64,000 nt of DNA from Nannocystis sp. (GTDB lineage: Bacteria > Myxococcota_A > Polyangia > Nannocystales > Nannocystaceae), in assembly GCF_016717175.1 (NCBI RefSeq), contig NZ_JADKFZ010000004.1; one strand, given 5' to 3'. Made by a program: the position numbers and the translations under genes. The notes beneath the pieces were generated by a model. The model had not been told where the DNA came from and did not search any database. It was given only the letters and a program-made list of their open reading frames with translations. Shown in pieces: positions 2,177 through 47,529 of the stretch (the stretch's first letter is position 1; each line of letters opens with the position of its first letter).

Positions 2177-2188
2177 GGTCCGACGCTA

Positions 2189-10635: not shown

Positions 10636-11546
10636 CCCTCGTCCCTCCGAACGCCGGCGATCACGCGCCGGGCCACGATCTTGGTCGCGCGCACCAGGTG
10701 CTGCCCCGGCCAGGTCGCGTCGGGGCGGGTCTCCTCGAACAGCGCGGAGATGCGGATGTACGGCCGCGTGCCCGCGTCGCGGTGGGCGTGGATCTGCAGG
10801 AGCAGCGGGTTGTCGCCGACGACGGTGAGCCGCGCCGTATACACGTGGTCCGAGTCGGAGAAGGGGGTCGGGCGGTACCCCGAATAGCTGAGGATGCGAA
10901 AGTCGATCCGCGGCGCGAAGTACAGGGTCTTCGATTGCCCGGTCGCCAGGCCCGCCTCGAGCACGTAGAAGGTCGGGGCGCTGTGGCCGGCGGTGTAGCC
11001 GAGGTACACCGATATCGCCGCGAAGCGGGCCCCGTGCAGCCGCGCCGGCGTGATCACGTCGACCCGCTCGATCACCCCGTCGATCTGGCTGCCGTACTTG
11101 GCCTGGACCTCGGCGACGGTGGCGAGCAGGTGATCCTCCGGCAACACCTCGCCGATCGCGGTGGCGACGGAGCGCGGCGTGGTCGGCGGCAGGCCCACGC
11201 GGACCATGCCGAGGTGGCCGGTGAAGGGGTCGTAGTCGGGCGCCTCGCGGTCGTGGGTGGCGTGGGCCCGGTAGTAGCGCAGGCCCCCGAGATCGCCGGC
11301 CGGCACCCGCAGGCGCGGCGCCTCGGTGCCGTCGCTGCAGGTCAGGCCGAGGCTCGCGGCCATCGCGTCGAGGGCGTCGCGGTAGCGGTCCCAGTCGAGC
11401 CGGATCTCGCTGGTGTCGTCGAGGTAAGCGGTCAACGCGATCGAGGTCAGGAGGTGATCGTCGACCACGGTGTCTGGGAAGCTCTGTCGCAACATCGACG
11501 TGAGCGCCTCCCGGTCGTCCGGGAGCAGGTCCAATTCCAGCTTCAT
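10632..11546 (-). CDS. Hypothetical protein (304 aa)
   Basis: Non-repetitive, balanced composition; good GC3 frame; stop overlaps start of downstream lipoprotein (ATGA). Confidence 0.55.
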   Translation of the reverse strand: MKLELDLLPDDREALTSMLRQSFPDTVVDDHLLTSIALTAYLDDTSEIRLDWDRYRDALDAMAASLGLTCSDGTEAPRLRVPAGDLGGLRYYRAHATHDREAPDYDPFTGHLGMVRVGLPPTTPRSVATAIGEVLPEDHLLATVAEVQAKYGSQIDGVIERVDVITPARLHGARFAAISVYLGYTAGHSAPTFYVLEAGLATGQSKTLYFAPRIDFRILSYSGYRPTPFSDSDHVYTARLTVVGDNPLLLQIHAHRDAGTRPYIRISALFEETRPDATWPGQHLVRATKIVARRVIAGVRRDEG

Positions 11547-14020: not shown

Positions 14021-16660
14021 ATGCTCGCCACGCTCGTCCGCTGGGGATATCCACACAAGGCGCGCACTGAGCCCGGCGCCTGGGGCGACGCGCAATTCGA
14101 CGCGTCGTGGCCGATGGAGGCGATCGACGCGCCCGGGGCCTGGCTGGTCCCTGCGAGCGGGCGCTGCTCGGTGGCCGTGGTCGACACCGGGGTGTACATC
14201 CAGCACCGGGATCTGGCGGGCTGCCGCGCCGTCGCCGGCACGGCCTGGACCGACGCCGCGGGCCACGGCACCGCGGTGGCCGGGGTGGTCGCGGCGAGCC
14301 ACGGCGCCGGCCTCGGGCTCGCGGGTGTATGTCCAGACGTCGGGCTCGCGGCGTACCTCGCCGACGACCAGCTGCTCGACGTGCTCAGCATCCCGGCGCT
14401 CGGCCTGACCCCGCGTCTGACCCGGCTGCTGGCGGCGCTGGCCGAGCTGCACGCGTCGATGGCCGCGCAGCCGCGGCCGGACATCCGCGCGGTCACCCTG
14501 GCCAAGGCCGGGGCGCGAGCGACGGCGAAGGAGGCCGAGGACGAGTGCCGCACGCACTTCCTCGCGCCGATCCGCGACCTGCTCGCCGACGATCTGGTGG
14601 TCGTGCTCGGCGGCGCCAATGCTCCGGTGCCGGCCGCTCGCTGCGTCCCGGCGGCGGTGCAGGGCCTGCTCGGCGGGCACGAGGGCGTGATTGTCGTATC
14701 GGGCAGCGAGCCGCCGTGGGGCAGCCCGTGGGAGCGCAACGCGGACCTCTGCTATCCGGGCCAGGACGACGTCGATCTGTGGGCGCCGGGCGGGCTGCAG
14801 ACCACGCTGGGGATCGCAGATCCGGCGCACTACAACGAATGCCCGGCGGTGGCGAGCGGGCCGACGCCGCTCAACGCCGGCAACTCGCTGGCGATCCCCC
14901 ACGTCGCCGGGGTGGCTGCGTTGCTGGTGCGGATCGATCCGACGCTGGGCGGCGCGGCGGTCGGGCGCCTGATCCGCGAGACCGCGGAGGAGCAGCGCAA
15001 CGCCGCCCACAAGCCGGCGATCCGGGTGCTCAACGCCTTCGCCGCGGCGCTGCGGGCCCACAATCGGGCGTGTCCGGACGCGCAGCTCGCCGGCTATCGC
15101 GTGATGATCCCGCATCGCCTCGAGTTCGTCGGCGGGCCCGAGGAGCTCGAGGGGGCCGTGCTGGTGCTCAGCTCGCCCGGCCACGCGGATCAGGTGGAGG
15201 TGCCATTTGTCTATCTGCCGAAGATCGGCGGACTCTATGCGTGGTGTCGATTCACCGCGCCGGCGTCGCTGCCGCTCGTCGCTGAATTGCAGCACACGAT
15301 CAAGAAGCACGGCGGCGCGAGCGTGACGCGCTGCCTGTGGCGCGGCGCGCTGACCTCGCTGATCGCGGGGGCCCCGGCCGGCGCGGTGAACAGCGCGTGG
15401 TGTCACCCGGCGTGCCCCGAGCTGCGGACGATCCGGCTGCAGGGGCTGGCGATGACGCTGGTCCACGCCGCCGATCCGGCCCGCCCGATCGCGCGGGCGA
15501 AGCTGCGGCTGCGGCACTGCGCGAACGGCAGCGAGTCGGTCTGCGAGACGGCGCTCGACGGCAGCTTCCTGCTGCCCTTCGTCGAGCCCGGGCCGCACGA
15601 GCTGCTCGGCGCCGACATCCCGGGCCTGCCGGGCGGGCTCTGTGTGGCCATGACCCTCGACGAGGGCAAGCTGTACGTCAGCGATCCGGCGACCGGGACG
15701 CAGCCGTTCCTGTCGGTGATGGCGCCGCCGCGGCGCAGCCCGTGGATCGGTCTCTGGGCCGGCGAGGTCGAGCTGGCCGGGGCCGTGGCGCCGGGCAAGG
15801 ACTGCGACGAGGTCGCGGGCGCGGTGACCGTGACGATGCGCGGCAAGCCGCTCGACCGCACCCGCGTGCTCGACCGCTGCATCGAGGCGATCAGCGGGGA
15901 CCACAGCAGCTACGAGGAATTCACCGAGGAGTTCGGCGCGATGCCGGAGGAGGACATGCCGGAGTTTGGCCGCAAGATCACGCGCGTGTTCTCGACGGCG
16001 CTGTGGCGGCTCACCGGGGCGCCGGCCAGCGAGGCGCAGGAGCTGGCGATGGACGACGCGCGCGAGGTGTCGCTGCTCGACTGGAAGGAGGTCGCGCTGC
16101 CGCCGGGCTTCCTGGTCGCCGAGGGAGCCGACGGGCTCGCTGTGTCGCTCGACCTGCGCGAGCTCAGTCGCCGTTTCCTGCAGGCGCACCTCGAGCGCCC
16201 GGACGAGCTGGCGTTCCCCTACGAGCTCGACCTCACCTTCGCGTGGTCGCTCGGCTACCAGACCCACGCGGCCGCCGACGCGAGCACGGCCTACGAGCTG
16301 CGCATCGCCCTCGTCGAGCGGGACCTCGCGCCGATGCCGGTCCCGTGGGCGGTGGTGCCGACCGAGGGCTGGCCGCGGCGCTGGCGGCTCGTGGCCGGGC
16401 CGCTGGCGGGGCCGATCGAGCTGTCGACCGCGCCGGGCAGCCCGCTGCGGATCTCGGCCGACCCGGAGCCGGCGCCGCCGGGGTGTACATCGGCGATCGT
16501 CGAGGAGCCGGCCGACACCTCGCCGGACGCGGCACGAGTGTTTGCGATCGGGCCGGCGGGGGAGGTCGGCGTGATCTCGCGGTGGCTATCCGTGGGCGAG
16601 GCGACCGCGGTCGCGAGCCATATCATCGTCACGCGCCGCGGCGCGCCGGTGCCTGCGTAG
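14021..16660 (+). CDS. Subtilisin-like serine peptidase (S8) with ~500-aa C-terminal extension; no signal peptide or propeptide
   Basis: Catalytic triad motifs VAVVDTGV (Asp), HGTAVAGVVAA (His), GNSLAIPHVAGVAALL (Ser). Confidence 0.8.
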   Translation: MLATLVRWGYPHKARTEPGAWGDAQFDASWPMEAIDAPGAWLVPASGRCSVAVVDTGVYIQHRDLAGCRAVAGTAWTDAAGHGTAVAGVVAASHGAGLGLAGVCPDVGLAAYLADDQLLDVLSIPALGLTPRLTRLLAALAELHASMAAQPRPDIRAVTLAKAGARATAKEAEDECRTHFLAPIRDLLADDLVVVLGGANAPVPAARCVPAAVQGLLGGHEGVIVVSGSEPPWGSPWERNADLCYPGQDDVDLWAPGGLQTTLGIADPAHYNECPAVASGPTPLNAGNSLAIPHVAGVAALLVRIDPTLGGAAVGRLIRETAEEQRNAAHKPAIRVLNAFAAALRAHNRACPDAQLAGYRVMIPHRLEFVGGPEELEGAVLVLSSPGHADQVEVPFVYLPKIGGLYAWCRFTAPASLPLVAELQHTIKKHGGASVTRCLWRGALTSLIAGAPAGAVNSAWCHPACPELRTIRLQGLAMTLVHAADPARPIARAKLRLRHCANGSESVCETALDGSFLLPFVEPGPHELLGADIPGLPGGLCVAMTLDEGKLYVSDPATGTQPFLSVMAPPRRSPWIGLWAGEVELAGAVAPGKDCDEVAGAVTVTMRGKPLDRTRVLDRCIEAISGDHSSYEEFTEEFGAMPEEDMPEFGRKITRVFSTALWRLTGAPASEAQELAMDDAREVSLLDWKEVALPPGFLVAEGADGLAVSLDLRELSRRFLQAHLERPDELAFPYELDLTFAWSLGYQTHAAADASTAYELRIALVERDLAPMPVPWAVVPTEGWPRRWRLVAGPLAGPIELSTAPGSPLRISADPEPAPPGCTSAIVEEPADTSPDAARVFAIGPAGEVGVISRWLSVGEATAVASHIIVTRRGAPVPA

Positions 16661-16718: not shown

Positions 16719-19085
16719 TCAGCGAGGGCCGTCGCCCTGGCCCTCGGGGAGCGGGTAGCGACCGAGCAGCTGTTCGGCGGCCGCGAGCGCCGCCTCGACG
16801 CGGGCGAGCGCGACGGCATCCTCGGTGTCGGTGATCCGCGGGCGCAGACGCTGGAGCGCCCGCCGGTTGAGGCCGAGGCCGAGCGGCGAGCCCTTCTCGC
16901 GGTTGAGGCCGATCGAGGAGGCGAGCACGCCGAGTGACTCGCGGATCTGGCCGGTCTCGGCCAGGAGGTCGGCGAGGGCGGCGGTCGTGCGGGCCATGCC
17001 GATCGCGTCGCCGAGCGAGCGCTGGACCTCGAGGGCGGCGGCGAGGCGCTGGCCGGCGCGCTCATGTCGACGCTTGGCGATCTCGATGCGGCCCATGGTC
17101 TCCCACACGCGGGCGACCGCGCGGGCGTCCCCGAGGCGGCGCAGCAGCTTCTCGGCGACCAGCGCGTGGTCGAGGGCCATCGACAGGGCGTCGTCCTCGC
17201 GACCCGGGCGCAGCGGCGCGTGCAGGGGCACGCGCGCGAGCAGGTGGTGGGTATCGGCGAGCTCGCGGAGGGCGACCTTGTCGTCGTCGCCGGCGGCCTC
17301 GAAGACCTGGCGCGAGCTGACCAGCAGGTGGGTCGCTCGCACGTGATCGCCGAGGCGGATGTAGATCGCCGCCTGGTCGTTGAGGAGGGCCGCTGCGCCG
17401 CGGGCGTCGCCAGCGGCCATGAGGGCCTGGCTGGCGGACATCAGGGCGGCGAGCGCCTCCTCGAGCGCCCGCAGGTCGCCGCGATCGTAGCCGACACCGG
17501 CGATCACCAGGGCGACCTCGGCCTGCAGCGCGGGCGGATCGCCGGGCACCACGGCCGCGAGCGCTTGCCGGGCCGTGATCAAAGCTGTCTCGAGGGTCAG
17601 GTGCGCGTCGGTGCCGAGGTCGGTGCCGAGGCTGGACCACTGGATGCGGGCGAGCTCGATGAGCGCGGCGATCCGCAGGCGTCGACGCGCGTCGGTCGGG
17701 GCCAGGCGCTCGAGGATCGCCAGGGCCCGGCGGGCGTGGCCGAGGCCCTGCGCGCCGAGGCCCTGGTCGGCGGCCTGGCGGGCGGCCTGGATGTAGCGCG
17801 CCGCGGCGTCGTCAGCCTCGTCGATCGCGTGGAGATGCGAGGCCGCTCGGGCCGCGTCCGGGCTGCGTCGGTGGCGGTGCGGGGCGTGCACGTGCGGGTG
17901 CTCTGCGCGCGGGACCGGAGCCTGCGGGGTTGGGCTCGCTGGCGCGGGCGCCGGGGCTGGCGCGGGCTGCAACTCGATGGTGACGGCGTGCGGCGTGGTG
18001 ACGGCGGGCGGCGCGGGCGGCGGATCGGTGGTGATCGTGGGCGGCGGATCTGTGGTGATCGTGGGCGGCGGATCGGCGGTGATCGCGGGCGCTGGATCGG
18101 TGGTGATCGTGGCTGGCGTCGAGGCGGTGATCGTGGCTGGCGTCGGGGTCGACTCGGCCGCGCTGAGCAGCGCGGCCTCGCGGGCCTGCGTGTCGCTCGC
18201 GGCCTCGGCATCGGCGCGGCCGGTCTGGAGCGGGTCGCCGCCGAGGATCTCGGCGAGGCGACGATGCCAGTAGTTGGCCAGCGACGGGGTGATGCCGGCG
18301 CGCAACGCCTCGACGATCGCGGGCGGCATGTGGATCCGGCCCTCGCCGCGATCCTCGAGCGGCACGCCGTGATCGATCGCGGCCTGCAGGTGCAGCAGCA
18401 CGGCCAGCGGGCGCTGCTCGAGCAGCGTCGCGCACAGCTCGACCTCGAAGCCGGTGCCGATCGTCGCGCCGGCTCGCAGGGTGGTGAGCGGCTCGGGCCC
18501 GAGGCCGCGCAGGCTCGTGGGGTCGGGGGTGGGGGTCGTCGCGGTCGCCGACTCGCCCGCCGGGGCCTGGATGACGGCGGCGAGGCCCTCGCTCGCGAGC
18601 AGCGCGGCGAGCAGGGAGCCCGCGGCGCCCGCTGGCTCGCGTGAGCGGAACATCAGGAGGATCGGCAGGCGCATCCATCCGGGGCGAAGGATGATCTGGT
18701 GGAGGATCGCTAGGGTCGCCGGGTCCGCGGCCTCGACGGCCTCGAAGACGAGGATCGATCGCCGGGGGTCGCCGTCGGCGAGGCGATTGCCGAGATCGAC
18801 GAGGACGGCGTCGATCTCGGTCGTCGGCGGCTCGCCGAGGAGGCGGCGCCGCAGGCCGCCCAGGACCCGGTCGCGGGCCTGCTCGAGGATCGGCGCCTCG
18901 CCGAGGACGAGCTCGAGGCGGCGACGGGCGTCGTGGAGGGGCCCGAGGGTCGAGGGTGGCACGTCGCAGCTGACCCGGATGAGCCGCAGTTCGCCGGGGG
19001 CGGCCGGCATCGGCAGGCCCACGAGGGCGGCGTGGCGGCCGCTGAGGAGGCGCTCCCAGATTCCGTGGCGATCGGTGTCAGGCAT
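16719..19085 (-). CDS. Large TPR-repeat protein with internal TITTDPPP tandem repeats
   Basis: 788 aa; C-terminal half alpha-helical TPR-like; central low-complexity repeat encoded by a 24-bp tandem array. Confidence 0.6.
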   Translation of the reverse strand: MPDTDRHGIWERLLSGRHAALVGLPMPAAPGELRLIRVSCDVPPSTLGPLHDARRRLELVLGEAPILEQARDRVLGGLRRRLLGEPPTTEIDAVLVDLGNRLADGDPRRSILVFEAVEAADPATLAILHQIILRPGWMRLPILLMFRSREPAGAAGSLLAALLASEGLAAVIQAPAGESATATTPTPDPTSLRGLGPEPLTTLRAGATIGTGFEVELCATLLEQRPLAVLLHLQAAIDHGVPLEDRGEGRIHMPPAIVEALRAGITPSLANYWHRRLAEILGGDPLQTGRADAEAASDTQAREAALLSAAESTPTPATITASTPATITTDPAPAITADPPPTITTDPPPTITTDPPPAPPAVTTPHAVTIELQPAPAPAPAPASPTPQAPVPRAEHPHVHAPHRHRRSPDAARAASHLHAIDEADDAAARYIQAARQAADQGLGAQGLGHARRALAILERLAPTDARRRLRIAALIELARIQWSSLGTDLGTDAHLTLETALITARQALAAVVPGDPPALQAEVALVIAGVGYDRGDLRALEEALAALMSASQALMAAGDARGAAALLNDQAAIYIRLGDHVRATHLLVSSRQVFEAAGDDDKVALRELADTHHLLARVPLHAPLRPGREDDALSMALDHALVAEKLLRRLGDARAVARVWETMGRIEIAKRRHERAGQRLAAALEVQRSLGDAIGMARTTAALADLLAETGQIRESLGVLASSIGLNREKGSPLGLGLNRRALQRLRPRITDTEDAVALARVEAALAAAEQLLGRYPLPEGQGDGPR
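18018..18145. repeat. 24-bp tandem repeat (~5 copies, ggcggcggatcggtggtgatcgtg) inside the TPR protein gene
   Basis: Direct inspection; encodes ATITASTPATITTDPAPAITADPPPTITTDPPPTITTDPPP. Confidence 0.7.
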
Positions 19086-19311
19086 CGCGGCACTTTGCCA
19101 CGCCCCGGCGGCGAATCGTCATTCAATCGTTCGTGGCGCGGGACGTGGATTCCTGCGCGCGCGGCGGACGCAATGCTTGCACTTGTGATACACATCGATA
19201 TGGGAGTGGAACGACGGGCCAGCGATGGCCTGGCGCGGTCGGCCCCGCGACGATCGTCGGCCCGCGCCGGGCTGATGCCCGGCCACGCATGCGTGATACC
19301 CTGCCGCGACG

Positions 19312-20589
19312 ATGCCGTTCGTGATCGGGGATCCGCCGAGCGCCCTGCGCGTGCTTCGCCTCGCGGACGCGCGGACGGCCGGCAGCGAGCTGCAGCAGCT
19401 CGGCGTGACCACGCCCGCGCCGACCCTCGCGCTGGTCGGCGGGGCGGCGAGCCTGGGCGAGGCCGCCCAGGCGGTGCTGCGGCCGCTGTTCGTCGACGGC
19501 CTGGTGCCCGCGGTCGCGGCCCTGGCGGGGATCGTGGTCGACGGCGGCACGGCGGTGGGGGTGATGCGCCTGATCGCGGAGGCGCGCGCAGCCGCCGGGG
19601 CCCAGTTCCCGCTGATCGGCGTCGCGGCGGCGGGCCGCGTCTCGCTCGGCGACGGCGACGCGGGCCACGACACGGTCGCGGCCGAGCCGCGGCACAGCCA
19701 CCTGATTCTCGTCCCGGGCGATCGCTGGGGCGACGAGTCGCCGTGGCTGTCGGAGATCGTCGGGCTGCTCGCCGGGCCCGCGCCGTCGCTGACGGTGTGC
19801 GCCGGCGGCGGCGACATCACCGTCGAGGACCTCGAGAACAGCGTGGCGGCCGGGCGCGCGGTGATCTTGATCGAGGGCAGCGGCGGCACGACCGACGCGG
19901 TCGCGGCGGCCCTGACCACGCGGAGCGCGGACCCGCGGCTGCGTCGCCTGGCCCAGGCCGGCAAGTTTCGCGTCGTGCGCAGCCGCGACGGCGCGGCCGC
20001 GCTGCGGGCTGCGATCGAGGCGGAGCTCCAGCCCGGGGCGCAGGCGTGGCCCGGGCCGAAGCCGCCGGCGCCGGTGCTCGGCGAGGCGGGGCTGCTCGCC
20101 GCGATCGCGGCGCTGCAGCTGGGGGCGACGCAGGTCAATTACCTGAGCGCGCGCTGGCTCGACCAGGTGCGCTGGCTCGACGCCAAGGCGGTCCTGTGCC
20201 AGCGCCGCTACTACCGGTCGCGGCGCAGCATCCTCGTGTGCAGCGCGCTGGTGCCGGTGCTGCTGGCGGCGGCGGAGGGCTACGCGGCGCTGCAGATCGC
20301 CGCCGGCGGGCTCAGCCTGGTGGTGACGATCGCGGCGGGCTGGGAGGCGTTCTTTCGTTACGGCGATCGCTGGCGGCACTACCGGGCGATCGCGGAGCGG
20401 CTGCGGCGGGAGGGTTGGCTGTACATCGAGCGCAGCGGGCCCTACGCGGACTACCCGAGCCACGCCCGGGCCCACGCGGCCTTCGTCCTGAACGCGGAGC
20501 AGATCCTCGCCGACGACGTCGAGCAGTTCGTGTCGCGGATCGCCGCGGAGCCGCAGCGCGGGCAGAGCACGTCCGCCACACCGCCGTGA
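19312..20589 (+). CDS. SLOG (LOG/TRPM-like Rossmann nucleotide-binding) domain fused to C-terminal SLATT (DUF4231-like 2TM) domain
   Basis: LOG-family motifs VDGGTAVGVM (GGxxGxM) and IEGSGGTTDA (PGGxGTxxE); C-terminal two TM helices (ILVCSALVPVLLAAAEGYAALQ / LSLVVTIAAGWEAFF) followed by conserved RWRHYRAIAERLRREGWLY; monocistronic, convergent with nSTAND gene, 15 bp between stops. Confidence 0.65.
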   Translation: MPFVIGDPPSALRVLRLADARTAGSELQQLGVTTPAPTLALVGGAASLGEAAQAVLRPLFVDGLVPAVAALAGIVVDGGTAVGVMRLIAEARAAAGAQFPLIGVAAAGRVSLGDGDAGHDTVAAEPRHSHLILVPGDRWGDESPWLSEIVGLLAGPAPSLTVCAGGGDITVEDLENSVAAGRAVILIEGSGGTTDAVAAALTTRSADPRLRRLAQAGKFRVVRSRDGAAALRAAIEAELQPGAQAWPGPKPPAPVLGEAGLLAAIAALQLGATQVNYLSARWLDQVRWLDAKAVLCQRRYYRSRRSILVCSALVPVLLAAAEGYAALQIAAGGLSLVVTIAAGWEAFFRYGDRWRHYRAIAERLRREGWLYIERSGPYADYPSHARAHAAFVLNAEQILADDVEQFVSRIAAEPQRGQSTSATPP

Positions 20590-20604
20590 GCATGGGCCGC
20601 GCGG

Positions 20605-23600
20605 TCACTTCGCGTTGCAGCGGTCGACCTGCAGGGCGGGGCAGACGTGGGTCGACTGGCGGAGCAGCTGCTCGGCCAGCACGGACTCGTAGGAGTAGTA
20701 ACAGCCGGCCTCGATCACGTGGCACAGGGTCTGCTCGTAGCCGTCGTGCTTGTTGGCCGAGCGGCGCAGGGCGTCGAAGAAGAGGGCCTCGCACTGGAAG
20801 AACTCGTAGGTCTGCGGGCTCTGCGAGTAGAGGGGCTTGGCGTAGTCCTGGCGGGTGAAGACGATCCGCTGGTCGTTGCGGAGGCTGCACAGCAGGTGCT
20901 CGCGCCACGGCGTGAGGTCGCCTTCCTTCTGGAGCTCAGCGTCGGCCAGCGATCGCGGCTTGTCGCAGTCGAGGTCGCCTTTATTCTGCTCGGGGGGGAG
21001 GAGCGCGGAGAGCAGCTTCTCGGCTTCGCCGCGGCGCCCGGCCTGGACCAGGCGCCACCACAGCATCATGGCGACGTAGTGGCGGTCCTCGGTCGCGGTG
21101 CCGGCGATGAAGTCGCGGGCGTGGCCCTCGAAGCCGTCGCCGAGCAGCAGGTGGGCGAAGGCCGGGTGGAGCTCCGCGCCGGGGCCCTGGCCGCGAACGA
21201 CACGCAGCGGTCCGTCGGCGATCCGGGCGGCCTCGATGAGGTCGACGCGGAGCGCGAGGAAGGCGCGCAAGGTGAGGTCGTAGCTGGTCCTGTCGCTGTC
21301 AGGGCCGAGCGCGGCGCCGGCCTCGTCGTAGCAGCCGAGCATGCGCTCGGCGTCGGCGGTGAGCACCCGGCGCTGGGAGGCGCTGATCCCCGCGAGGCCA
21401 GGCGCCTTCAGCTGGGTCCGAAGGGCGCGCAGGCAGCTGCGCCGGACATCGCGGGGCTGCTGGAGGGCCCAGCTGAGCGCGAGCCGGGAGGCGCTGGGGG
21501 CCTTGTCCTTGAGCTGGGCGAGGGGGAGCGCGCAGGTCCGGGTGAAGGTCTCGAAGGCGCCGGGCTTGAGCAGGTTCTTGAGCAGGGTCTCGAGCAGCTC
21601 GGGTGGACCGCCGATCCGCTGGCGGGCGACCTCATCGGCGAGGGCCATGAGCGCCGCGTCGGGGAGGCGGTCCCTCGCCAGGTCGAGCATCAGCTGGGTG
21701 CAGCTGCGACTGTCGAACTCATTGCAGATGTCCAGGGCGCGGTCGTAGGCGGTGTCCCACGCGCCGATGCTCAGGTCGTCGGGCGCGGCGGCTGCGGCGG
21801 AGCGTCCGGCGCCCGCGCTCGCGGGCCCGCGCTCGCCGTTCAGGAGGCCCCGGATCTGGGCGCGGTAGCCGGGGAACTGGTTGCTCTCGAGGGCGGCGCG
21901 CAGGAGGTTGGTGCCGAGCATCAGGCCGGTGCGGGCGTCGCGGCCCGGGTCGGCGAGCGTGCCGAGGATCGTCGCGGGTTCGCGGCCGAGGTCCAGCAGA
22001 TCCTTGCAGACGCGGTCGAAGCCGTCTGGCGGGATGTGGTCCGCCAGGCGATCGAGCATCGTGCGCGAGAAGTGGCGCGAGAGATCGTCGAGCCGCTCGG
22101 GGTGCTCACCGCGGAAGCGACGCGGGTCGCCGAAGCACACGTGATCGAGGCGGGCCCGCAGCAGCTGGTCGACGGTGTCCGGGGCCGCGTAGTTGGCGAT
22201 GAAGTCCGGGCGTAGGTCGCCGCGCTTCGCCGCGGCCAGGAAGATCGCCGTGGCCTCGTCAGGATCGTCGTGGACGAGGGCATCGATGCCCTGGTCCGTC
22301 CAGCTCACGGTCGGGCGCGGCCCGGCCGGGTCAGCGCGCAGGAGATCGAGGAGCCCGGTCGCGGTGCAGGCCTGTGGGTCATTGGCCGCGGCGCAGTACA
22401 CGTGCCAGAAGGGCAGGCTGTGGAGCAGCCAGGGCAGCTGGTCGCGCGCCCGCTCCGGCTGCTCGCTGCGCCACCACAGCGCGCGCACGAGCGCGGGGAG
22501 GTCACGGGCCACGACCGGTTGGGCGAGCCACCGCTCGAGGCCCGGAGGATGATGGATGGCCGCGAGGAGCTCGCTCGCCGAGAGGTCGCCGAAGGGTCGC
22601 GGCGTCGGGATGCCGGCGAAGAGCATGTCGACGATCTCGTCGTGGCCGGGCGGCGGCGGGTCGTCGCAGTGATCATTCGCCGGCAGGTCGGGGTCGGGCC
22701 GGGTGGGGGTCGGCGCGTCCTCGGCGAGCCGGGCCGCGAGCTCGCTGGCCAGGAAGTCGCGCTGGCGGCCGCGGTCCACGGGTGGCACCTCGAGCGCGAG
22801 CAGCCAGTCGACCGCGGCGGGCCAGCGCTCGCCACGGAGGCCGTCGCGGGCCGCGAGGATGAAGGCCTCGCGCAGGCGACCCGCGAGCAGCTCGCGGACG
22901 TGGGGGCGACAAGCGGCGTCGTCGCGGCAGCTCGGTGACCAGCGCAGCGCGGCCTCGCTGGCCTGGCACTGCGCGCGTCGGTCGACCCGCGCGAGCATCG
23001 CCTCGACGAAGTCCGGCGTGACGTAGAGCGAGGGGTCGGCGGCGACGCGGGCGAACGCGGTGGTTGCGATCTCGGCGGCGCTCGCGGGATAGGTGGCGAG
23101 CTCGGGGTGCTGGCGTGCGAGCAGACGCCACAGCGGGGCGCTCCACGCCGCGGCGCGCCCCGGGTGACTCGCCGTGGGATCGTCGCCGGTGAGAAAGCCG
23201 GTGAGAGAACCGGTGAGAAAGCCGGACTCGCGGAGGAGCTTCCAGGGCAGCGAGGGCCGCTCGCGGTCTGGATCCGCGGTCGCTGGGGCCTCCGCCGCGG
23301 GGCGCCGCTCGCGGTCTGGATCCGCGGTCGCTGGGGCCTCCGCCGCGGGGTCGTGGAACACGGCGAGGCCCGGGCGCGGCGGGCCGGAGGGGAGGGTCAG
23401 GCGGACCGACAGCGCGCCGCCGTCGATCTCGAGCTTGAGCTCGTGGTCCGCGAGGCTCGCGTCGCGCCGGGCCAGGACGGCGAGCGGCACGGGGAGGTGG
23501 TGCTCGCGCCAGTGCTGGCCCGCCAGGTTGCGCCACAGCGCGACGATCGCCGGGGAGTCGGAGTCGTCGCCGCGGTGCACGATCGTCAGGGCGGCAGGCT

Positions 23601-25125
23601 TCGCGGGCGCCTGCGTCGGGTCGCAGGGGTCGCGGGGTCCGAGGACGGCGCGCCACACGAGGCCGCGGCGGAGGCCGGCGAGCAGGCCGGCGGTGGTCTG
23701 GCCGCGCAGGCGCCGGATGCTGGCGAAGCGACCGCGGCCCTCGAGCTCGAGGGCCCAGGTCCACAGGCTGCGGGTCGCGCTGTTCAGCTCATCGCAGCCG
23801 CTCGCCGAACGCACCAGCTCGAGCTGGGTCGCCTCCTCGGCGGCATCCCGGGAGATGAGCACGCTGAGCATGGCGATCGGCACGGCGATCACCGACAGGA
23901 CGATCGCGGCGATGACGGCACGGACCCGGGTGCGTTGCTTGCGGCGGGCGGCTGCGGCGACGCGGCCGAGCTCCTCCTCGACGAAGGGGCGCAGCACGCG
24001 GGTGAAGGCGTCGTGGAACAGCTCGACGACCTCGCCGCGGTCGCGGCGGTGGACGATGCGCTCGCGGTCGAGGTGGTCGAGCACTGCGTCGATGCGTGGG
24101 CGCGGGAGCCCCAGCTGGGACGCGAGGACGTCGACCGGGTAGGCCATGCGGACGCCGATCCGCGGCGCGAGCAGGCCGAGCACGCGGGCGGTGTCCTGGC
24201 GGAGCTGGCCGGTGAGCTCGCGGGTCGCGTCCGTCACGAAGGTGGCGACGATGCCGTCGCAGCCGCCGAGCTGGCGGTACAGCGCGAGGGTCAAGCGCGG
24301 CGCGGCGTCGCCGGCGACGGCGGCCCACAGGCGCCGGAGGACGATCTGCAGGAAGGGCAGGGAGATGCCCGCGGGCTGGCTCGTGTCGGTCTTCAGCCCG
24401 CTGGCGACCACGTCGCCGCGCAGGTCGAGCAGCAGCGCCTCGACCAGCCCTGGCTCGACCTCGCCGTGGAATTCGGGCAGGCGCGCGGGCTCGCGGATCG
24501 CCTCCTCGGCCTGCTTGCCGGCCAGCGGCCCCAGGCGGTAGACGGCCTGCGGGATCGTCAGGAAGTGCGGGCGCAGGGCCTCGAGGCTGGCGAGGTACTC
24601 CTCGCGCAGCGACAGCACCACGCGCACCGCTGTGTCGTTGCGCAGCAGCGACCCGAGCGCCGCGCCGAGAGCGTCGAGCTCGGCGGCGTGGCGGATGAAC
24701 ACCTGCTCGAACTGGTCGAGCACGAGGACCAGGCCCTGGGCGTGCGAGGCGGCGGCGAGGCGGGCGGCGGCGGGCAGGTCGCTCGCGCCGGCGCCGAGGC
24801 TCGCGACCAGCGCGGCCTGGATGCTCGCCAGCGGCGATCCGGCCCAGCTGTCGACGTAGACCGGGAGGGCCCCGAGCTCGCGCAGCGCCGGGACGATGAG
24901 GGTCCGCAGCAGCGAGCTCTTGCCGGCGCCGGAGGGCGCGACCATCACCGCCAGCGAGGTGGCGAGGATCGTGTTGCGGACCAGCTTGCCCTCGGGCTGG
25001 CGGCCGAAGAACAGGGCCCGCTCCGACTCGTCGTAGGGGCGCAGCCCGACGTAGGGGCCGGCCGGGCGCGGGCCGAGCGGGCGCGGGCCGAGCGGGCGCG
25101 GGCCGAGCGGGCGCGGGTCGGTCAC
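20605..25125 (-). CDS. nSTAND-type STAND NTPase with ~1000-aa alpha-helical C-terminal region
   Basis: GTG 25125-25123 overlaps upstream stop (GTGA); N-terminal PRPLG x3 then GPYVGLRPYDESERALFFGRQ, Walker A APSGAGKSSL, Walker B LVLVLDQFEQ; the first 515 aa of ORF-track entry 20605-26673 are an out-of-frame shadow of the TIR gene. Confidence 0.8.
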   Translation of the reverse strand: MTDPRPLGPRPLGPRPLGPRPAGPYVGLRPYDESERALFFGRQPEGKLVRNTILATSLAVMVAPSGAGKSSLLRTLIVPALRELGALPVYVDSWAGSPLASIQAALVASLGAGASDLPAAARLAAASHAQGLVLVLDQFEQVFIRHAAELDALGAALGSLLRNDTAVRVVLSLREEYLASLEALRPHFLTIPQAVYRLGPLAGKQAEEAIREPARLPEFHGEVEPGLVEALLLDLRGDVVASGLKTDTSQPAGISLPFLQIVLRRLWAAVAGDAAPRLTLALYRQLGGCDGIVATFVTDATRELTGQLRQDTARVLGLLAPRIGVRMAYPVDVLASQLGLPRPRIDAVLDHLDRERIVHRRDRGEVVELFHDAFTRVLRPFVEEELGRVAAAARRKQRTRVRAVIAAIVLSVIAVPIAMLSVLISRDAAEEATQLELVRSASGCDELNSATRSLWTWALELEGRGRFASIRRLRGQTTAGLLAGLRRGLVWRAVLGPRDPCDPTQAPAKPAALTIVHRGDDSDSPAIVALWRNLAGQHWREHHLPVPLAVLARRDASLADHELKLEIDGGALSVRLTLPSGPPRPGLAVFHDPAAEAPATADPDRERRPAAEAPATADPDRERPSLPWKLLRESGFLTGSLTGFLTGDDPTASHPGRAAAWSAPLWRLLARQHPELATYPASAAEIATTAFARVAADPSLYVTPDFVEAMLARVDRRAQCQASEAALRWSPSCRDDAACRPHVRELLAGRLREAFILAARDGLRGERWPAAVDWLLALEVPPVDRGRQRDFLASELAARLAEDAPTPTRPDPDLPANDHCDDPPPPGHDEIVDMLFAGIPTPRPFGDLSASELLAAIHHPPGLERWLAQPVVARDLPALVRALWWRSEQPERARDQLPWLLHSLPFWHVYCAAANDPQACTATGLLDLLRADPAGPRPTVSWTDQGIDALVHDDPDEATAIFLAAAKRGDLRPDFIANYAAPDTVDQLLRARLDHVCFGDPRRFRGEHPERLDDLSRHFSRTMLDRLADHIPPDGFDRVCKDLLDLGREPATILGTLADPGRDARTGLMLGTNLLRAALESNQFPGYRAQIRGLLNGERGPASAGAGRSAAAAAPDDLSIGAWDTAYDRALDICNEFDSRSCTQLMLDLARDRLPDAALMALADEVARQRIGGPPELLETLLKNLLKPGAFETFTRTCALPLAQLKDKAPSASRLALSWALQQPRDVRRSCLRALRTQLKAPGLAGISASQRRVLTADAERMLGCYDEAGAALGPDSDRTSYDLTLRAFLALRVDLIEAARIADGPLRVVRGQGPGAELHPAFAHLLLGDGFEGHARDFIAGTATEDRHYVAMMLWWRLVQAGRRGEAEKLLSALLPPEQNKGDLDCDKPRSLADAELQKEGDLTPWREHLLCSLRNDQRIVFTRQDYAKPLYSQSPQTYEFFQCEALFFDALRRSANKHDGYEQTLCHVIEAGCYYSYESVLAEQLLRQSTHVCPALQVDRCNAK
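25060..25112. repeat. 15-bp tandem repeat x3.5 (cgagcgggcgcgggc) encoding PRPLG repeats at the N-terminus of the nSTAND gene
   Basis: Direct inspection. Confidence 0.7.
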
Positions 25126-27203
25126 GCGGGTCTCCGGGCCCGCAGGGCGCGGACGAGGGTCGGGAGTTCGATCGAGCTCATGTCGACGTGGAACTGCTCC
25201 CACAGCCGCTGCTCGAGCGTCGAGGCGGGCTCGCGCACGGCGAGCGCACCGCTGCGGCGATCGTCGTCGCGGGCCGCTTCGCGCTGGAGTCGCGGCTCGC
25301 GGCGGAAGAACGCGTGCCCGATCAGGCGATAGTGCCAGATGTCGAGGTTGAAGCCGAGGAACAGCAGGCGCCGGGTGTAAAGCTGCAGGGCGAAGGCGCT
25401 GGGGATCGTCGTGTGCTGGTGCTCGAGCTGGGCGAGGAAGGTGATGTGGTCGCTCTCGGTGATCACGACGGTGTCGAGCTCGCGGTCGCGGACGGCGGGG
25501 TGCTCGGCGAGGAAGGGCGAGCCGAGCAGCTTGTAGATGACGCAGTCGTCGTCGTCGATCTCCGCCTCGAGCTCGGAGGTCAGGCGGACGGCGGCCGCGG
25601 TCGCGGGGTCCCGGCCGCGGGGGTGATGCGCGCTGCGCAGGAGCAGCGCCTTGCCGACGTCGTCGCCGGCCGAGCGGAGGATGTGGCTCACGAGCACGTA
25701 CGGGCGCCCGGCCTCGTCGAGGGCGCGCTCGAGCTCGAGGTCGTGGGTCGTGGAGATCACGAACCATGGCGGCTTCATGTCGAGGATCATGTCGAACGCC
25801 GCCGGCGGCGCGAGCTGGGCCGGTCCGCCGAGGATCTCGCGCAGATCGGCGAGGAAGGGCTGGCGGCGGCGCTCGAACTGCAGCGCCTCCGCGGCGGCGG
25901 CCATCGTCGGGTTGTGGCCGGCGCCGAGGCCGGCGCGCTCGCTGAGCTGCTTGACGATGGCGTAGTAGTTGCGCTGCGAACCGTCCCAGATGCCGTCGCC
26001 GAGGAAGGGGATGAGCTCGCCGCGCCAGAACACCGGGGCGATGCGGTCGACGAACTGTTGCTGCAGCGGGTGGAGCTTGATGTCGGCGAGCACGCTGCCG
26101 CTGCGGCGGCGCAGCTGCATCTCGCTCGGCTTGGTGTTGAAGACCAGCGGCAGGACGCCCTCGCCGAGGGCGACCTGGATCGCCTGCAGGACCTCCTCGA
26201 CGGTGCTGATGCCGTCGTGGTTGCTGTCGGCGGCGTCGTTGCTGAGCGCGTGCAGCAGCAGCCCGGTCAGGGGGCTGTGCGCGTCCTGCCAGGCCTCGGG
26301 GCGCGCCGCCGGGCCCGCGCTGGTGGCCAGCAGGACCTTGCCCGGGCCGGGCCCGAGCTGGGTGCGCAGCTGGGCCTCGACCTCGGCCTTCGCGGTGTCG
26401 CCGTAGCAGGCGTCGAGGACGATGAAGAGGTGGCCGACCTGGGTCTGGTCGAGGAACATCTGCTTGATCAGCGCGAGCGAGACGCCGGCCGGGAGCTCGC
26501 TGTTGCGGGCGGGGAGGAAGGGGCCGAAGCCGGTGAAGCTGACGTGGCCGGCGAAGTACAGCAGGACGAAGTCGTCGTGGCTGGCCGGCGCGAGCAGGTC
26601 GGCGATCGCCCGCATCAGCTGGCGGCCGTCGGGGTCGACGAGGCTGACGACCTCGAACTCGCACTCGGGCCACGTGAGCGCCTCGGCGAGGCGCAGGACG
26701 TTGCGCTCCGCGGCCGGCAGCGCCGGCGCGTCCGCGCCGCGGGACAGCGCGACCAGCAGGGCACGCCGGCCGCTGCGCTTCGGCGCGGACGCGGTGGTCG
26801 CGGGCGGGGCGGCGAGCCAGGCCCGGATGTCCGCGACGAGCTTGCGAAAGGCCGGGGCGCCGCGGTCACCGATCCAGTCGATGAGGTCGATGGTCTGGAT
26901 CTGGTCGTAGGGCTTGGGCGGCGCGACGGGGTCGAGGCGGACCGGGACCAGGACGCCGCGTCGTCGGCCCTCGTCGGCCTCGGAGCGGATCCAGGTCCGC
27001 TGCTCGTCGATCGCGTGCCGCGACCACAGGACGACCACGCAGGCGGCCCGCTCGACCCGCGCCTGCAGCTCGCCGGCGTAGGCCGTGCCGGCGCGGAGGT
27101 CGGCGTCCCACCACACGTCGAGGCCCTCGTCGCGCAGGGCGGTGACGAGGGCTAGGGCGCGCTCGCGATCCTCGCTCGCGTGGCTGACAAAGACCTGGGA
27201 CAT
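25122..27203 (-). CDS. Triple-domain effector: TIR + caspase-like (C14/CHAT) + SIR2-like (SIR2_2 family)
   Basis: TIR: VFVSHASEDRERALALVTALRDEGLDVWWD..CVVVLWS; caspase dyad LLYFAGHVSF / LFIVLDACYGDT; SIR2_2 blocks LIPFLGDGIW, WFVISTTHDLELERAL, VIYKLLGSPF, VVITESDHITFL, LLFLGFNLDIWHYRL. Confidence 0.8.
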   Translation of the reverse strand: MSQVFVSHASEDRERALALVTALRDEGLDVWWDADLRAGTAYAGELQARVERAACVVVLWSRHAIDEQRTWIRSEADEGRRRGVLVPVRLDPVAPPKPYDQIQTIDLIDWIGDRGAPAFRKLVADIRAWLAAPPATTASAPKRSGRRALLVALSRGADAPALPAAERNVLRLAEALTWPECEFEVVSLVDPDGRQLMRAIADLLAPASHDDFVLLYFAGHVSFTGFGPFLPARNSELPAGVSLALIKQMFLDQTQVGHLFIVLDACYGDTAKAEVEAQLRTQLGPGPGKVLLATSAGPAARPEAWQDAHSPLTGLLLHALSNDAADSNHDGISTVEEVLQAIQVALGEGVLPLVFNTKPSEMQLRRRSGSVLADIKLHPLQQQFVDRIAPVFWRGELIPFLGDGIWDGSQRNYYAIVKQLSERAGLGAGHNPTMAAAAEALQFERRRQPFLADLREILGGPAQLAPPAAFDMILDMKPPWFVISTTHDLELERALDEAGRPYVLVSHILRSAGDDVGKALLLRSAHHPRGRDPATAAAVRLTSELEAEIDDDDCVIYKLLGSPFLAEHPAVRDRELDTVVITESDHITFLAQLEHQHTTIPSAFALQLYTRRLLFLGFNLDIWHYRLIGHAFFRREPRLQREAARDDDRRSGALAVREPASTLEQRLWEQFHVDMSSIELPTLVRALRARRPA

Positions 27204-27347
27204 GATCGCAGCGGAGCGCGCAGCGGCTTGTGTACCACCATCGGCCGCTGTGTTGCAGGTGATCGAGGCGGGCTTTCTCGTCGACGTCGTCGATATCGGG
27301 GCCGCGCGAGCGGCCGCGTCCGCGCTGCCCGGCGGCGCCCGGCGGTC

Positions 27348-27890: not shown

Positions 27891-28385
27891 TCACTCGCGC
27901 GGCTCGTCGTCGGTCGGAGCGGACCAGTATCCACGCATCAGCTCGGTCATCCACGCGGGCTGGCGCAGCGGGCCGCGGGGCGCGAATTCCTGCACCCACG
28001 GCTTGAGGTCGAGGACCGGTGTGCCGTCGACGGCGTCGAGGCCGGCGAGCTCGAGCGTGAGGCCGGTGACGCGCTCGATGCGACAGACGCTGAGGCCGAG
28101 TTGGTTCGGGCGATTCTTGCCGCGCTGGGCGAAGATGCCGACCGCGGGCCAGTCGCTGTTGTTGCGCGGGTGCCGGGCGCCGGTCTCGATGCGGGTCGGG
28201 TCGACCTGGTCCATGTGGAAGATGACCTCGACGTGCGAGAAGCTGTCGAGGCCGGCGAGGGCGTCGGGGCTGAAGCGGGCCGGGTCGAGCTCGATGCGGG
28301 CCACCACGGCGTCCCAGTCGTCATCGAGGAGGGGGCGCCGGGTCGAGCGGACGAAGCCGATCGGCTGCAGGATGATCGCGGTCAC
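27891..28385 (-). CDS. tsaA: tRNA m6t6A37 methyltransferase TsaA/YaeB family (UPF0066)
   Basis: VTAIILQPIGFVRS parallels E. coli MSSFQFEQIGVIRS N-terminus; GLDAVDGTPVLDLKPW; probable GTG start 28385; the ORF-track start at 28577 would add an AAPPFS x5 repeat N-extension. Confidence 0.65.
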   Translation of the reverse strand: MTAIILQPIGFVRSTRRPLLDDDWDAVVARIELDPARFSPDALAGLDSFSHVEVIFHMDQVDPTRIETGARHPRNNSDWPAVGIFAQRGKNRPNQLGLSVCRIERVTGLTLELAGLDAVDGTPVLDLKPWVQEFAPRGPLRQPAWMTELMRGYWSAPTDDEPRE

Positions 28386-28400
28386 GCGGCGCCTCCCCGG

Positions 28401-28490
28401 TGGCGCGGCCGAGAAGGGTGGCGCGGCCGAGAAGGGTGGCGCGGCCGAGAAAGGTGGCGCGGCCGAGAAGGGTGGCGCGGCCGTGGAGAA
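28401..28490. repeat. 18-bp tandem repeat x5 (tggcgcggccgagaaggg)
   Basis: Direct inspection; lies in the 5' leader (or N-extension) of the tsaA-like gene. Confidence 0.8.
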
Positions 28491-28609
28491 TCTGCGGAGA
28501 TCCGGGCCGACATCACGGCGAGGGTGACGCGCGGGCGCGGGGTCTGTCAAGCGGGCCACGCCGCCGCGGGCTGTCACCCGTGTTCGCGCCGTCGTGGGCC
28601 CGATTTATC

Positions 28610-28715
28610 GACTCGCTTTGTCCGGACTTGCTTTGTCTGGACTCGCTTTGTCCGGACTTGCTTTGTCTGGACTCGCTTTGTCCGGACTCGATTTGTTCGC
28701 ACTCGCTTGGGGGGC
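28610..28715. repeat. 15-bp tandem repeat x7 (ggactcgctttgtcc / ggacttgctttgtct alternating, i.e. 30-bp unit) in a divergent intergenic region
   Basis: Direct inspection; GGAC...GTCC termini; no spacers so not CRISPR. Confidence 0.8.
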
Positions 28716-28806
28716 CGCCGCGAGCGATCGCGCGTGCGGCCGCGGTCCGTCGGCGCGCGATCATGGATCACGAGGCGGCCGTTCTTTGCCGGTACACTCG
28801 CGGCGC

Positions 28807-29439
28807 GTGGCACCTCGATGGCTCGGGTCGGTGGCGGTGATGGGGCTTGTCGTCGCCTGTCCTTCGGGACAGGCGACACGGCCGCCAGACACGACGGCCG
28901 CGCCGCCGAGCGAGCCCGTTGGCGCCGCCGCGCCGCCGGCGGTGGATCGCTGTCCGCCGGGGAGCACAGCGGAGGGCTGCCCGCCGCTCGACACCGACGG
29001 CGACGGGATCGTCGACGGCGACGACAAGTGCCCGGACAACCCCGAGACCCGGAACGGCTATGAGGACGCGGACGGCTGCCCGGACGAGATCCCGGTGGCG
29101 GTCACGCGGTACAAGGGGACGATCCCGAAGGTACGCTTCGAACGCGACTCGGCGGCGATCAGCGAGTCGCAGGCGCTGCTGGACGCGGCCGTGGCCGTGT
29201 TGCTGGACTACCCGGCCATGCAGGTCGAGATCTCCGGGCACACGGCCGCGGGGGAGCGGCCGGAGCTGTCGCTGCGCCGCGCCGAGGCGGTGCGCGACTA
29301 CCTGGTCGCGCACGGCGTCGCGGGCGAGCGCCTGCGGGTCCGCGGCGCCGCGGAGGAGGAGCCGATCGGTGACCTGGCGACCGCCGCTGGCAAGGCCAAG
29401 AACCGACGCGTCGAGTTCACGATCCTGGAGTCCGAATGA
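28807..29439 (+). CDS. OmpA-family lipoprotein with TSP3 repeats
   Basis: Probable GTG start 28807 giving WLGSVAVMGLVVAC lipoprotein signal; TDGDGIVDGDDKCPDNPE repeats; OmpA C-terminal domain NRRVEFTI. Confidence 0.7.
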   Translation: MAPRWLGSVAVMGLVVACPSGQATRPPDTTAAPPSEPVGAAAPPAVDRCPPGSTAEGCPPLDTDGDGIVDGDDKCPDNPETRNGYEDADGCPDEIPVAVTRYKGTIPKVRFERDSAAISESQALLDAAVAVLLDYPAMQVEISGHTAAGERPELSLRRAEAVRDYLVAHGVAGERLRVRGAAEEEPIGDLATAAGKAKNRRVEFTILESE

Positions 29440-35298: not shown

Positions 35299-35577
<279 letters not shown>

Positions 35578-47407: not shown

Positions 47408-47529
47408 GAGCCCCCGCCCGGCTGGGTTCACAAGCCAGCGACGGCTCCGTCGAGCTCTCGTTGGCGGGGGCCCTCGCGTGTCGATCGTCGATCGACCGCG
47501 GCACCCACGGATATCAAGGGAGTGGGAGC

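Follow-up and report, generated by a model that had tools for sequence, protein, structure and literature searches.

The question raised by this locus of Nannocystis sp., a 64,000-nucleotide stretch of genomic DNA hereafter called the window, is whether a gene for a fused SLOG-SLATT protein (19312-20589, + strand, 425 amino acids, a predicted nucleotide-gated membrane effector) belongs functionally to the TIR and nSTAND1 genes with which it lies tail to tail. A first-pass annotation had read the group as a Thoeris-like circuit, in which a signal made by the TIR domain is bound by SLOG and leads to membrane disruption by SLATT. In our analysis the three genes very probably function together. 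We further consider it reasonably probable, from homology, predicted topology, and the surrounding genes, that positions 19144-27342 form one conflict cassette, for immunity or programmed cell death, acting by the five-step scheme set out below. The core of that scheme, in which a TIR product would bind SLOG and SLATT would then damage the membrane, also seems probable on the grounds of homology and genomic context. The functional tie of the SLOG-SLATT gene to the TIR/nSTAND1 pair follows from the boundaries of the cassette, from partners that are rearranged but kept, and from co-occurrence statistics.

A three-gene block and its rearranged relatives

Homology in blastn between the window and locus L005, in which the SLOG-SLATT protein is 95% identical, is limited to 19144-27342 (8.2 kb, 92% DNA identity). 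This block runs from 168 bp 5' of the SLOG-SLATT ATG to 139 bp 5' of the TIR ATG and holds exactly three genes. Its left edge is the noncoding region 5' of the SLOG-SLATT gene (19144-19311, + strand), within which the promoter of that gene presumably lies, and its right edge is the region 5' of the TIR/nSTAND1 operon (27204-27342, - strand), where homology with L005 stops at 27342. For the genes flanking the block in L005 the whole 64-kb window offers no homolog, and the genes flanking it in the window likewise lack one in L005. When the ends of the block (~19144 and ~27342) were examined for direct or inverted repeats, only chance-level 9-10-mers in GC-rich DNA came up, and there is no evidence at the cassette edges pointing to a mobility mechanism. 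Two neighboring genes were considered as further members, one for a 788-aa protein with a weak TPR_12 match (16719-19085, - strand, divergent) and one for an S8 subtilase-like protein (14021-16660, + strand), and both were rejected as absent from L005 and all other loci.

More distant homologs of the SLOG-SLATT protein keep these partners in other orders. At 63% identity, a TIR-AAA_16-TPR protein (that is, TIR-STAND-TPR) precedes SLOG-SLATT (L001); at 52%, TIR, nSTAND1, and SLOG-SLATT genes follow one another on one strand with gaps of 8 and 5 bp (L008); at 49%, an nSTAND1 gene preceded by a TIR-caspase-SIR2_2 gene runs divergently from SLOG-SLATT (L010); and at 44%, in a member of the Polyangiaceae, SLOG-SLATT comes first, followed by TIR-x-SIR2_2 and nSTAND1 (L018). 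Simpler systems are found at 41% identity, with an adjacent, divergent gene for a 333-aa TIR protein (L016) or, in an actinobacterium, two TIR-PASTA proteins adjoining SLOG-SLATT (L019). Cyanobacterial homologs at 38% and 37% identity have a TIR-WD40 gene ~110 bp downstream (L011 and L017), and another at 37% has a divergent gene with three TIR domains and WD40 repeats (L015). The TIR domain of the 921-aa cyanobacterial neighbor was masked by WD40 hits and emerged when the first 160 residues were rescanned (TIR_2, E=2.5e-28). Transmembrane (TM) helices are carried by the small TIR partners of the simpler systems (L016, L019, and L082). Both L019 proteins (1903-3474, - strand; 3638-5410, + strand) resemble transmembrane TIR receptors in their layout, which comprises a TIR in the cytoplasm, a TM helix, and, outside the cell, PASTA (and SBP_bac_3) domains. 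In addition, SLOG occurs as a standalone gene, in actinobacteria and other bacteria, beside a TIR-TPR-S gene and two SLATT genes (L098) and beside MAP3K_TRAF_bd-TPR-S and SLATT genes (L099 and L100). Overall, TIR adjacency is kept in at least seven arrangements, in four phyla, and among homologs down to ~37% identity, and such variety of gene order speaks against the simple inheritance of synteny. The SLOG-SLATT family is concentrated in multicellular lineages, namely Nostocales, Polyangiaceae/Nannocystis, and actinobacteria.

The frequency of this association was measured with a TIR hidden Markov model (HMM) built for this analysis and run on 97 loci, in which grouping of the SLOG(-SLATT) proteins at 70% identity gave 18 clusters. 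Every one of the seven clusters of fused SLOG-SLATT proteins has a TIR gene within 4.5 kb; of the 11 split-gene clusters, 6 have one within 5 kb, giving 13/18 overall. The background, estimated from the density of TIR open reading frames (ORFs) in the more distant flanks (>5 kb) of these loci, is 0.056 per +-5 kb (binomial p ~4e-13). Co-occurrence with TIR genes had been proposed as a check on the circuit, and its outcome is positive. The window itself holds exactly one TIR gene and one SLOG-SLATT gene, both in the cassette.

The three proteins

Random ORFs are plentiful at the G+C content of the window (73%), and genes were therefore called by GC content at the three codon positions. For the SLOG-SLATT ORF, which runs from ATG to TGA, these values are 0.78/0.56/0.96, fitting a 73% GC genome, so that 19312-20589 is taken to be a real gene. 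Its product is 100% identical to an NCBI "DUF4231 domain-containing protein" of Nannocystis sp. The gene had first been drawn to end at 20607; the ORF ends at 20589, and the 18-bp overshoot consists of the spacer and the nSTAND1 stop codon (20605-20607).

The N-terminal SLOG domain (aa 37-229; 19420-19998, + strand), a predicted TRPM MHR1/2-like Rossmann fold with Gly-rich ligand loops, matches Pfam LSDAT_prok (PF18171, "SLOG in TRPM, prokaryote") with E=2.2e-56 and 190.6 bits against a cutoff of 25.4, over profile positions 2-191 of 195. The glycine motifs quoted by the first-pass annotation are present as DGGTAVGVM (aa 77-85) and IEGSGGTTD (aa 187-195), both near-invariant in 217 family sequences, and the Gly-rich loops VGGA, DGGTxxGxM, GGG/NGG, and GSGxxxD are (nearly) invariant in a 21-homolog set as well as in the 217. 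The C-terminal SLATT/DUF4231 module (aa 277-409; 20140-20538, + strand) matches NCBIfam SLATT_1 over its whole length (E=1e-30, 106.3 bits, cutoff 41), Pfam DUF4231 at aa 284-384 (E=8e-25, 87.7 bits, cutoff 24.7), and Pfam SLATT_3 (31.8 bits, cutoff 26.3), and falls slightly under the threshold of Pfam SLATT_1 (25.4 vs. 26.3 bits). Both domain assignments thus rest on strong profile matches. A housekeeping, cytokinin-type LOG identity was ruled out, given that no Pfam match to the LOG family (Lysine_decarbox) appeared at E<=1, that the motif is GSGGTTD and not PGGxGTxxE, and that the family adjoins TIR, STAND, and WD40 genes in nonmetabolic contexts and not the housekeeping surroundings that would have pointed to LOG.

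Two TM helices are predicted in the SLATT module (aa ~306-322 and ~326-347; 20227-20352, + strand), with Kyte-Doolittle maxima of 1.91 and 1.76 in a 19-residue window. They form a tight hairpin with a turn of three residues, and the Arg-rich flanks (CQRRYYRSRRS and RYGDRWRHYR) predict that both hairpin ends are cytoplasmic. The C-terminal module is all-helical in an AlphaFold2 model of the protein, with helices at 272-320 and 325-348.

The SLOG domain had been likened to both ThsA and TRPM channels, and only the second likeness stands; it belongs to the TRPM/LSDAT family and not to that of ThsA (STALD). Homology between the TRPM N-terminus and prokaryotic SLOG domains is already embodied in the Pfam names LSDAT_prok and LSDAT_euk. 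When a profile of 21 homologs was compared with the PDB, the best solved relative was human TRPM2, residues 159-376 (MHR1/2), with E=7e-18. The AlphaFold2 model (pLDDT 84) found TRPM2, 3, 4, 5, or 8 in 49 of the top 50 Foldseek PDB hits, mostly TRPM2, TRPM4, and TRPM8, with E down to 2e-12 and about 1e-11 for TRPM2. In human TRPM2 the MHR1/2 cleft is the orthosteric site, in which ADP-ribose (ADPR) or 8-Br-cADPR, an analog of cyclic ADPR (cADPR), is bound in a U shape, the ligand phosphates contacting R358 and the N-terminus of helix alpha7 (PMC6759353). In the HMMER alignment the aromatic clamp Y295 of TRPM2 corresponds to W139 of SLOG (W in 207/217 family members, F in 7/217), and TRPM2 GSGR(358)xAD aligns with GSGG(192)TTD. 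Together with H128, E142, and D195, the Gly-rich loops are nearly invariant in the 217 SLOG sequences, which is as expected of a constrained, here putative, ligand pocket. The two proteins are therefore alike in their Gly-rich loops, the aromatic clamp position, and the GSGxxxD helix N-terminus, and both couple a nucleotide-binding SLOG (binding being a prediction here) to a device for membrane permeability. They differ in that TRPM2 is a 6-TM TRP channel whereas SLATT has two TM helices, the membrane parts being unrelated, and in having Arg or Gly at the position of R358. Position 192 (codon 19885-19887) is Arg in 188/217 sequences, those with Arg pairing with TIR-WD40, with TIR-TM, or with no TIR, and Gly in all six STAND-coupled loci (window, L001, L005, L008, L010, and L018). 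This Gly may be a mark of ligand specificity, or may merely reflect a single clade; judged from the alignment, its replacement of R358 may mean a ligand other than ADPR/cADPR, or an altered binding geometry.

The TIR gene (25122-27203, - strand) lies 4.5 kb from SLOG-SLATT, with only nSTAND1 in between, and encodes a 693-aa protein with TIR_2 (aa 4-122, E=1.7e-21), caspase-like Peptidase_C14 (aa 146-342), and SIR2_2 (aa 482-673) domains. Its TIR domain aligns with Brucella TcpB/BtpA and keeps the Glu of the WxxxE motif (WIRSE, Glu75), a catalytic residue present in every partner TIR aligned, in the window and at other loci. The context of the His/Cys dyad in the caspase-like domain reads FAGHV / LDACYG. 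In a phmmer search of the PDB the whole protein gave no SIR2 hit, and a four-sequence profile reached ThsA-like SIR2 structures. The SIR2_2 motifs are degenerate at 25185-25760 (- strand) and in a second SIR2_2 domain of the window at 30613-31515 (+ strand), with STTHD / GSFD for TTNYD and YKLLGS for KLHGS, while L010 retains NYD. We take TTNYD and KLHGS to be the catalytic motifs of SIR2 NADases, and the SIR2_2 domains of the window may, by their motifs, lack NADase activity and serve as adaptors or in binding.

The adjoining nSTAND1 gene (20605-25125, - strand, stop codon at 20605-20607) encodes 1506 aa with an NTPase domain at aa 24-376 (Pfam nSTAND1, E=3e-43, 149.2 bits, cutoff 27.1). The start was placed at the GTG at 25125 instead of that of a longer 2022-aa ORF; this GTG overlaps the TGA stop of the TIR gene (GTGA), and by this reading of the sequence the two genes are translationally coupled, in agreement with the earlier claim that the partner of the NTPase carries a TIR domain. 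A single TM helix is predicted directly after the NTPase (aa 399-426; 23848-23931, - strand; Kyte-Doolittle 2.76), with RRKQRTRVR before it and an acidic segment after it, and such a helix occurs in all five nSTAND1 proteins examined (window, L005, L008, L018, and a second copy in the window). Of 23 Cys residues, 22 lie beyond the helix, in the ~1080-aa C-terminal region. Pfam repeats of the TPR/WD40/HEAT supermodule were not found at aa 430-1506, the place of such repeats being taken by the TM helix and Cys-rich region. This layout suggests an N-in/C-out receptor with a predicted extracytoplasmic, Cys-rich sensor. The gene also has in-frame tandem repeats at 25055-25117 (15 bp x 4.2, N-terminal PLGPR) and 23185-23225 (12 bp x 3.4, FLTG), and at 23256-23350, just past the TM helix, a perfect 48-bp duplication (AAEAPATADPDRER, two copies). 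The L005 ortholog is 38 aa shorter, possibly by variation in repeat number.

At the junction, direct reading places 15 bp (20590-20604) between the convergent stop codons, as first noted. A scan in and around this gap found no intrinsic terminator, which makes overlapping transcripts plausible, and the RNA fold of the junction did not exceed shuffled sequence in stability (z=-0.35). A promoter scan of 19144-19311 turned up no sigma-70 consensus, and neither the terminator nor the promoter scan gave anything above shuffled controls.

Known systems and the surrounding window

PADLOC, applied to the SLOG-SLATT protein and six neighbors, returned only weak domain-level hits and a type II methyltransferase. 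Those of the TIR protein, all weak, were to the CBASS SAVED_TIR model, PDC-S66, and a caspase model. Without a PADLOC model match there is no homology-based precedent for defense activity, and membership in Avs/AVAST or bNACHT was rejected on finding zero PADLOC families for both nSTAND1 proteins of the window. Canonical Thoeris was also rejected, because the TIR domain is fused to caspase and SIR2_2 domains, there is no stand-alone ThsB, control lies with an nSTAND1 protein, the effector is on the opposite strand, and PADLOC gave no ThsA or ThsB match. The locus does have a TIR with a catalytic Glu near an effector and, at the domain level only, a signal-binding plus toxic architecture (SLOG + SLATT), as Thoeris has. 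The proposal of a Thoeris-like circuit is supported by comparative genomics, in particular in its TIR linkage; it is membership in Thoeris proper that fails, on architecture and on PADLOC models.

Nucleotide-centric conflict systems composed of TIR or DRHyd, TPR-S, SLOG, and SLATT were reportedly predicted by computation by Burroughs and colleagues in 2015. The present cassette shares with these their domain vocabulary and predicted logic of nucleotide-processing enzyme, SLOG sensor, and SLATT pore (compare L098-L100). It differs in that the enzyme is not TIR-TPR-S but TIR-caspase-SIR2_2 with a membrane-anchored nSTAND1 protein, and in that SLOG and SLATT are fused.

Among Thoeris systems, type VII consists of a ThsB TIR and the SLATT effector ThsH, with canonical cADPR as the signal, and was validated in 2025 (bioRxiv 10.64898/2025.12.03.692087). 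It resembles the present locus in that the TIR enzyme adjoins a SLATT effector and in the proposal that cyclic ADPR leads to SLATT oligomerization and membrane damage. However, ThsH, compared here by its description, is annotated by its authors as SLATT only, with a pocket proposed between SLATT protomers, whereas in Nannocystis a TRPM2-like SLOG is fused in front and the TIR forms part of a TIR-caspase-SIR2_2 protein coupled to an nSTAND1 NTPase. Type I pairs a ThsB TIR with ThsA, a SIR2-SLOG protein, through the signal 3'cADPR (bioRxiv 10.64898/2025.12.03.692087). In both that system and, by prediction, this one, a SLOG fused to a killing domain detects a cADPR isomer made by the TIR, but the SLOG of ThsA is of the STALD family with a SIR2 NADase as output, in contrast to the TRPM/LSDAT family and membrane module found here. 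In type II a Macro domain is paired with a membrane pore, and in type IV the TIR signal activates a caspase-like protease; the same survey treats STAND-associated TIRs as effectors and deliberately excluded them (bioRxiv 10.64898/2025.12.03.692087).

SLATT has been predicted to be a membrane effector regulated by ADPr derivatives (PMC9503650; PMC7159879). Kaur et al. 2020 name SLATT genes solely among GTPase-centered systems and link such conflict systems to multicellularity (PMC7159879), and Kaur et al. 2021, who named nSTAND1, mention neither SLOG nor SLATT in their main text (PMC8195603). With the STAND/NLR-like systems of these authors, and with Avs/bNACHT, the cassette has in common a STAND NTPase, a large C-terminal region, TIR and caspase effector domains, and occurrence in a myxobacterium. 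It is unlike them in having a conserved third gene, for a predicted small-molecule-gated membrane effector, and this third gene implies that the TIR signals in trans. The associations of TIR with SLATT and of SLOG with SLATT are already established predictions; new here is a predicted STAND-gated variant, in which TIR-caspase-SIR2_2 and nSTAND1 are joined by a fused, TRPM2-like SLOG-SLATT protein.

A second nSTAND1 system lies 2.3 kb from the cassette. Its first gene (29476-31518, + strand) encodes a CHAT protease with SIR2_2, and its second (31515-35342, + strand) an nSTAND1 NTPase with weak WD40-like hits and a predicted TM helix at aa 461-487, the TTG start overlapping the TGA stop (TTGA). 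This pair is paralogous to TIR/nSTAND1 and serves as an internal contrast, having no TIR and no accompanying SLOG-SLATT gene. It is directly followed by a gene for an Eco57I-type type II DNA methyltransferase (35499-37433, + strand; PADLOC MTase_II, E=6e-217), and the region looks like a defense island. Between the two systems, tandem repeats occur at 28399-28483 (18 bp x 4.7, APPFSA), in the N-terminus of a TrmO-like ORF (27891-28577), and at 28610-28708 (15 bp x 6.6, LALSG), at the start of an OmpA-family ORF (28594-29439). Farther along, large myxobacterial-type proteins fill 43049-58820, among them a Ser/Thr kinase with FG-GAP repeats (43049-47407), a Laminin_G_3/crystallin protein of ~1990 aa (47008-52983), an RCC1-repeat/DUF4215 protein (53592-56252, - strand), and two weakly Peptidase_C25-like proteins.

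A possible mechanism and its alternatives

In the scheme that we favor, the membrane-anchored nSTAND1 NTPase would be both sensor and switch and, once activated, would turn on the coupled TIR-caspase-SIR2_2 protein. The TIR domain, with its intact catalytic Glu, would then make an ADP-ribose-derived molecule from NAD+, either a cADPR isomer or ADPR, which would bind the TRPM2-like cleft of the SLOG domain in the protein of 19312-20589. Finally, the SLATT hairpin would oligomerize or open in the inner membrane, so that membrane integrity is lost and the cell is killed or arrested. We infer the order of activation, the identity of the ligand, and the formation of a pore. The entire pathway may be located at the membrane, as the small TIR partners of related systems also have TM helices.

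Several observations weigh against this scheme. The phosphate-binding R358 of TRPM2 is replaced by Gly in the window SLOG and in all of its STAND-coupled relatives; the TIR/nSTAND1 operon and the SLOG-SLATT gene are read from different strands, so that co-regulation is not guaranteed; and the TIR protein has its own candidate killing domain, the caspase, so that a separate effector is not strictly required. PADLOC gave no hits for the SLOG-SLATT protein or for either nSTAND1 protein, and only weak ones, none of them to ThsB, for the TIR and CHAT proteins. Moreover, the 70%-identity clusters behind the co-occurrence statistic are not fully independent phylogenetically, and at the 57 loci of a Nostoc clade with split genes no TIR was found within 10 kb by the TIR HMM, which may miss divergent TIRs, with a Pfam check on L067 only. 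A local TIR gene is on this evidence common and not obligatory. In this clade (within L020-L081) separate SLOG and SLATT genes lie 3-9 bp apart, as at 9914-10666 and 10670-11284 of L067, where the neighbors are an M16 peptidase, an ABC ATPase, an IS110 transposase, and, two genes upstream, a small TPR/TPR-S protein.

A broader version of the scheme extends it to multicellular bacteria in general, whose STAND ATPases would use TIR as a second-messenger synthase gating a TRPM2-homologous SLOG and a pore. In Nannocystis a transmembrane nSTAND1 protein would then perform outside-in immune or kin-death signaling, and Gly-192 would mark a distinct ligand of the STAND-coupled clade. We regard this version as tentative, and possible more than probable.

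The alternative that survives best is that the TIR is mainly an NAD+-depleting effector of nSTAND1, with SLOG-SLATT as a second-tier amplifier that answers the bulk by-products of NAD+ consumption (ADPR, cADPR). The treatment of STAND-associated TIRs as effectors in the Thoeris survey fits this explanation, as do the effector-typical caspase and SIR2-like domains of the TIR protein and the fact that a TRPM2-type pocket binds plain ADPR. Yet in L016, L019, and L082 the partners of the same SLOG-SLATT family are small TIR-only or TIR-TM proteins lacking any further effector, which is the logic of Thoeris with the TIR as signal maker. We consider the amplifier rather unlikely, and its distinction from a dedicated messenger is a matter of degree.

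A different purpose is conceivable for the same parts, namely an outside-in circuit for programmed cell death or kin recognition in a social myxobacterium, not an antiviral one, in which a cue from outside the cell would be sensed by the Cys-rich, presumably periplasmic part of nSTAND1, and TIR and SLOG-SLATT would carry out developmental or allorecognition lysis. The TM helix in 5/5 nSTAND1 proteins and the 22/23 Cys residues beyond it in the window protein are in accord with such a function, as are TIR partners with TM helices and extracellular PASTA/SBP domains, the multicellular lineages of the family, and the link to multicellularity drawn by Kaur et al. 2020 (PMC7159879). The topology of nSTAND1 is only predicted, however, and sensing of phage or toxins at the envelope is equally compatible with it, and we judge this purpose unlikely.

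It is quite improbable that SLOG-SLATT is autonomous and adjoins TIR/nSTAND1 without signaling, merely through the clustering of defense genes. Its convergent orientation and separate promoter, the Nostoc split clade without a local TIR, and the nearby methyltransferase and second nSTAND1 system could be read in this way. Against it, the homology with L005 stops precisely at the limits of the three-gene cassette, the association recurs in at least seven arrangements and four phyla (p ~4e-13), and the gaps in L008 are only 8 and 5 bp. Least probable of all is a catalytic SLOG (a LOG-like hydrolase of nucleotides or ADPR derivatives) or a sponge, setting the threshold as a regulator or immunity component and not as a killer: the SLOG superfamily does include LOG phosphoribohydrolases, the invariant H128, E142, and D195 are conceivably catalytic, and the LOG-like protein 1rcu is weakly similar (E=6e-6), but the closest relatives by far are the noncatalytic ligand-binding domains of TRPM, Lysine_decarbox is not matched at E<=1, and SLATT, to which the domain is joined by fusion or within an operon, is regarded in published annotation as a membrane effector that kills cells.

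Three genes in 8.2 kb make a compact cassette, and the catalytic and pocket positions to alter by mutation are clear (TIR E75; SLOG W139, G78/G79, and D195), which makes the proposed scheme directly testable. Among prokaryotic domains, the SLOG of this family stands closest to the ADPR/cADPR pocket of TRPM2, and the small protein that carries it is a tractable model of how ligand binding is coupled to membrane permeability. The TIR domains of bacterial STAND/NLR-like proteins are generally regarded as terminal, NAD+-depleting effectors, and plant TIR-NLRs (TNLs) signal in trans via a small molecule. The retention of SLOG-SLATT with TIR/STAND pairs through rearrangements argues that some such bacterial TIRs also signal in trans by a small molecule. 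If the broader version of the scheme is true, the cassette would be a bacterial counterpart both of the signaling from plant TNLs to helper channels and of ADPR-gated TRPM2.

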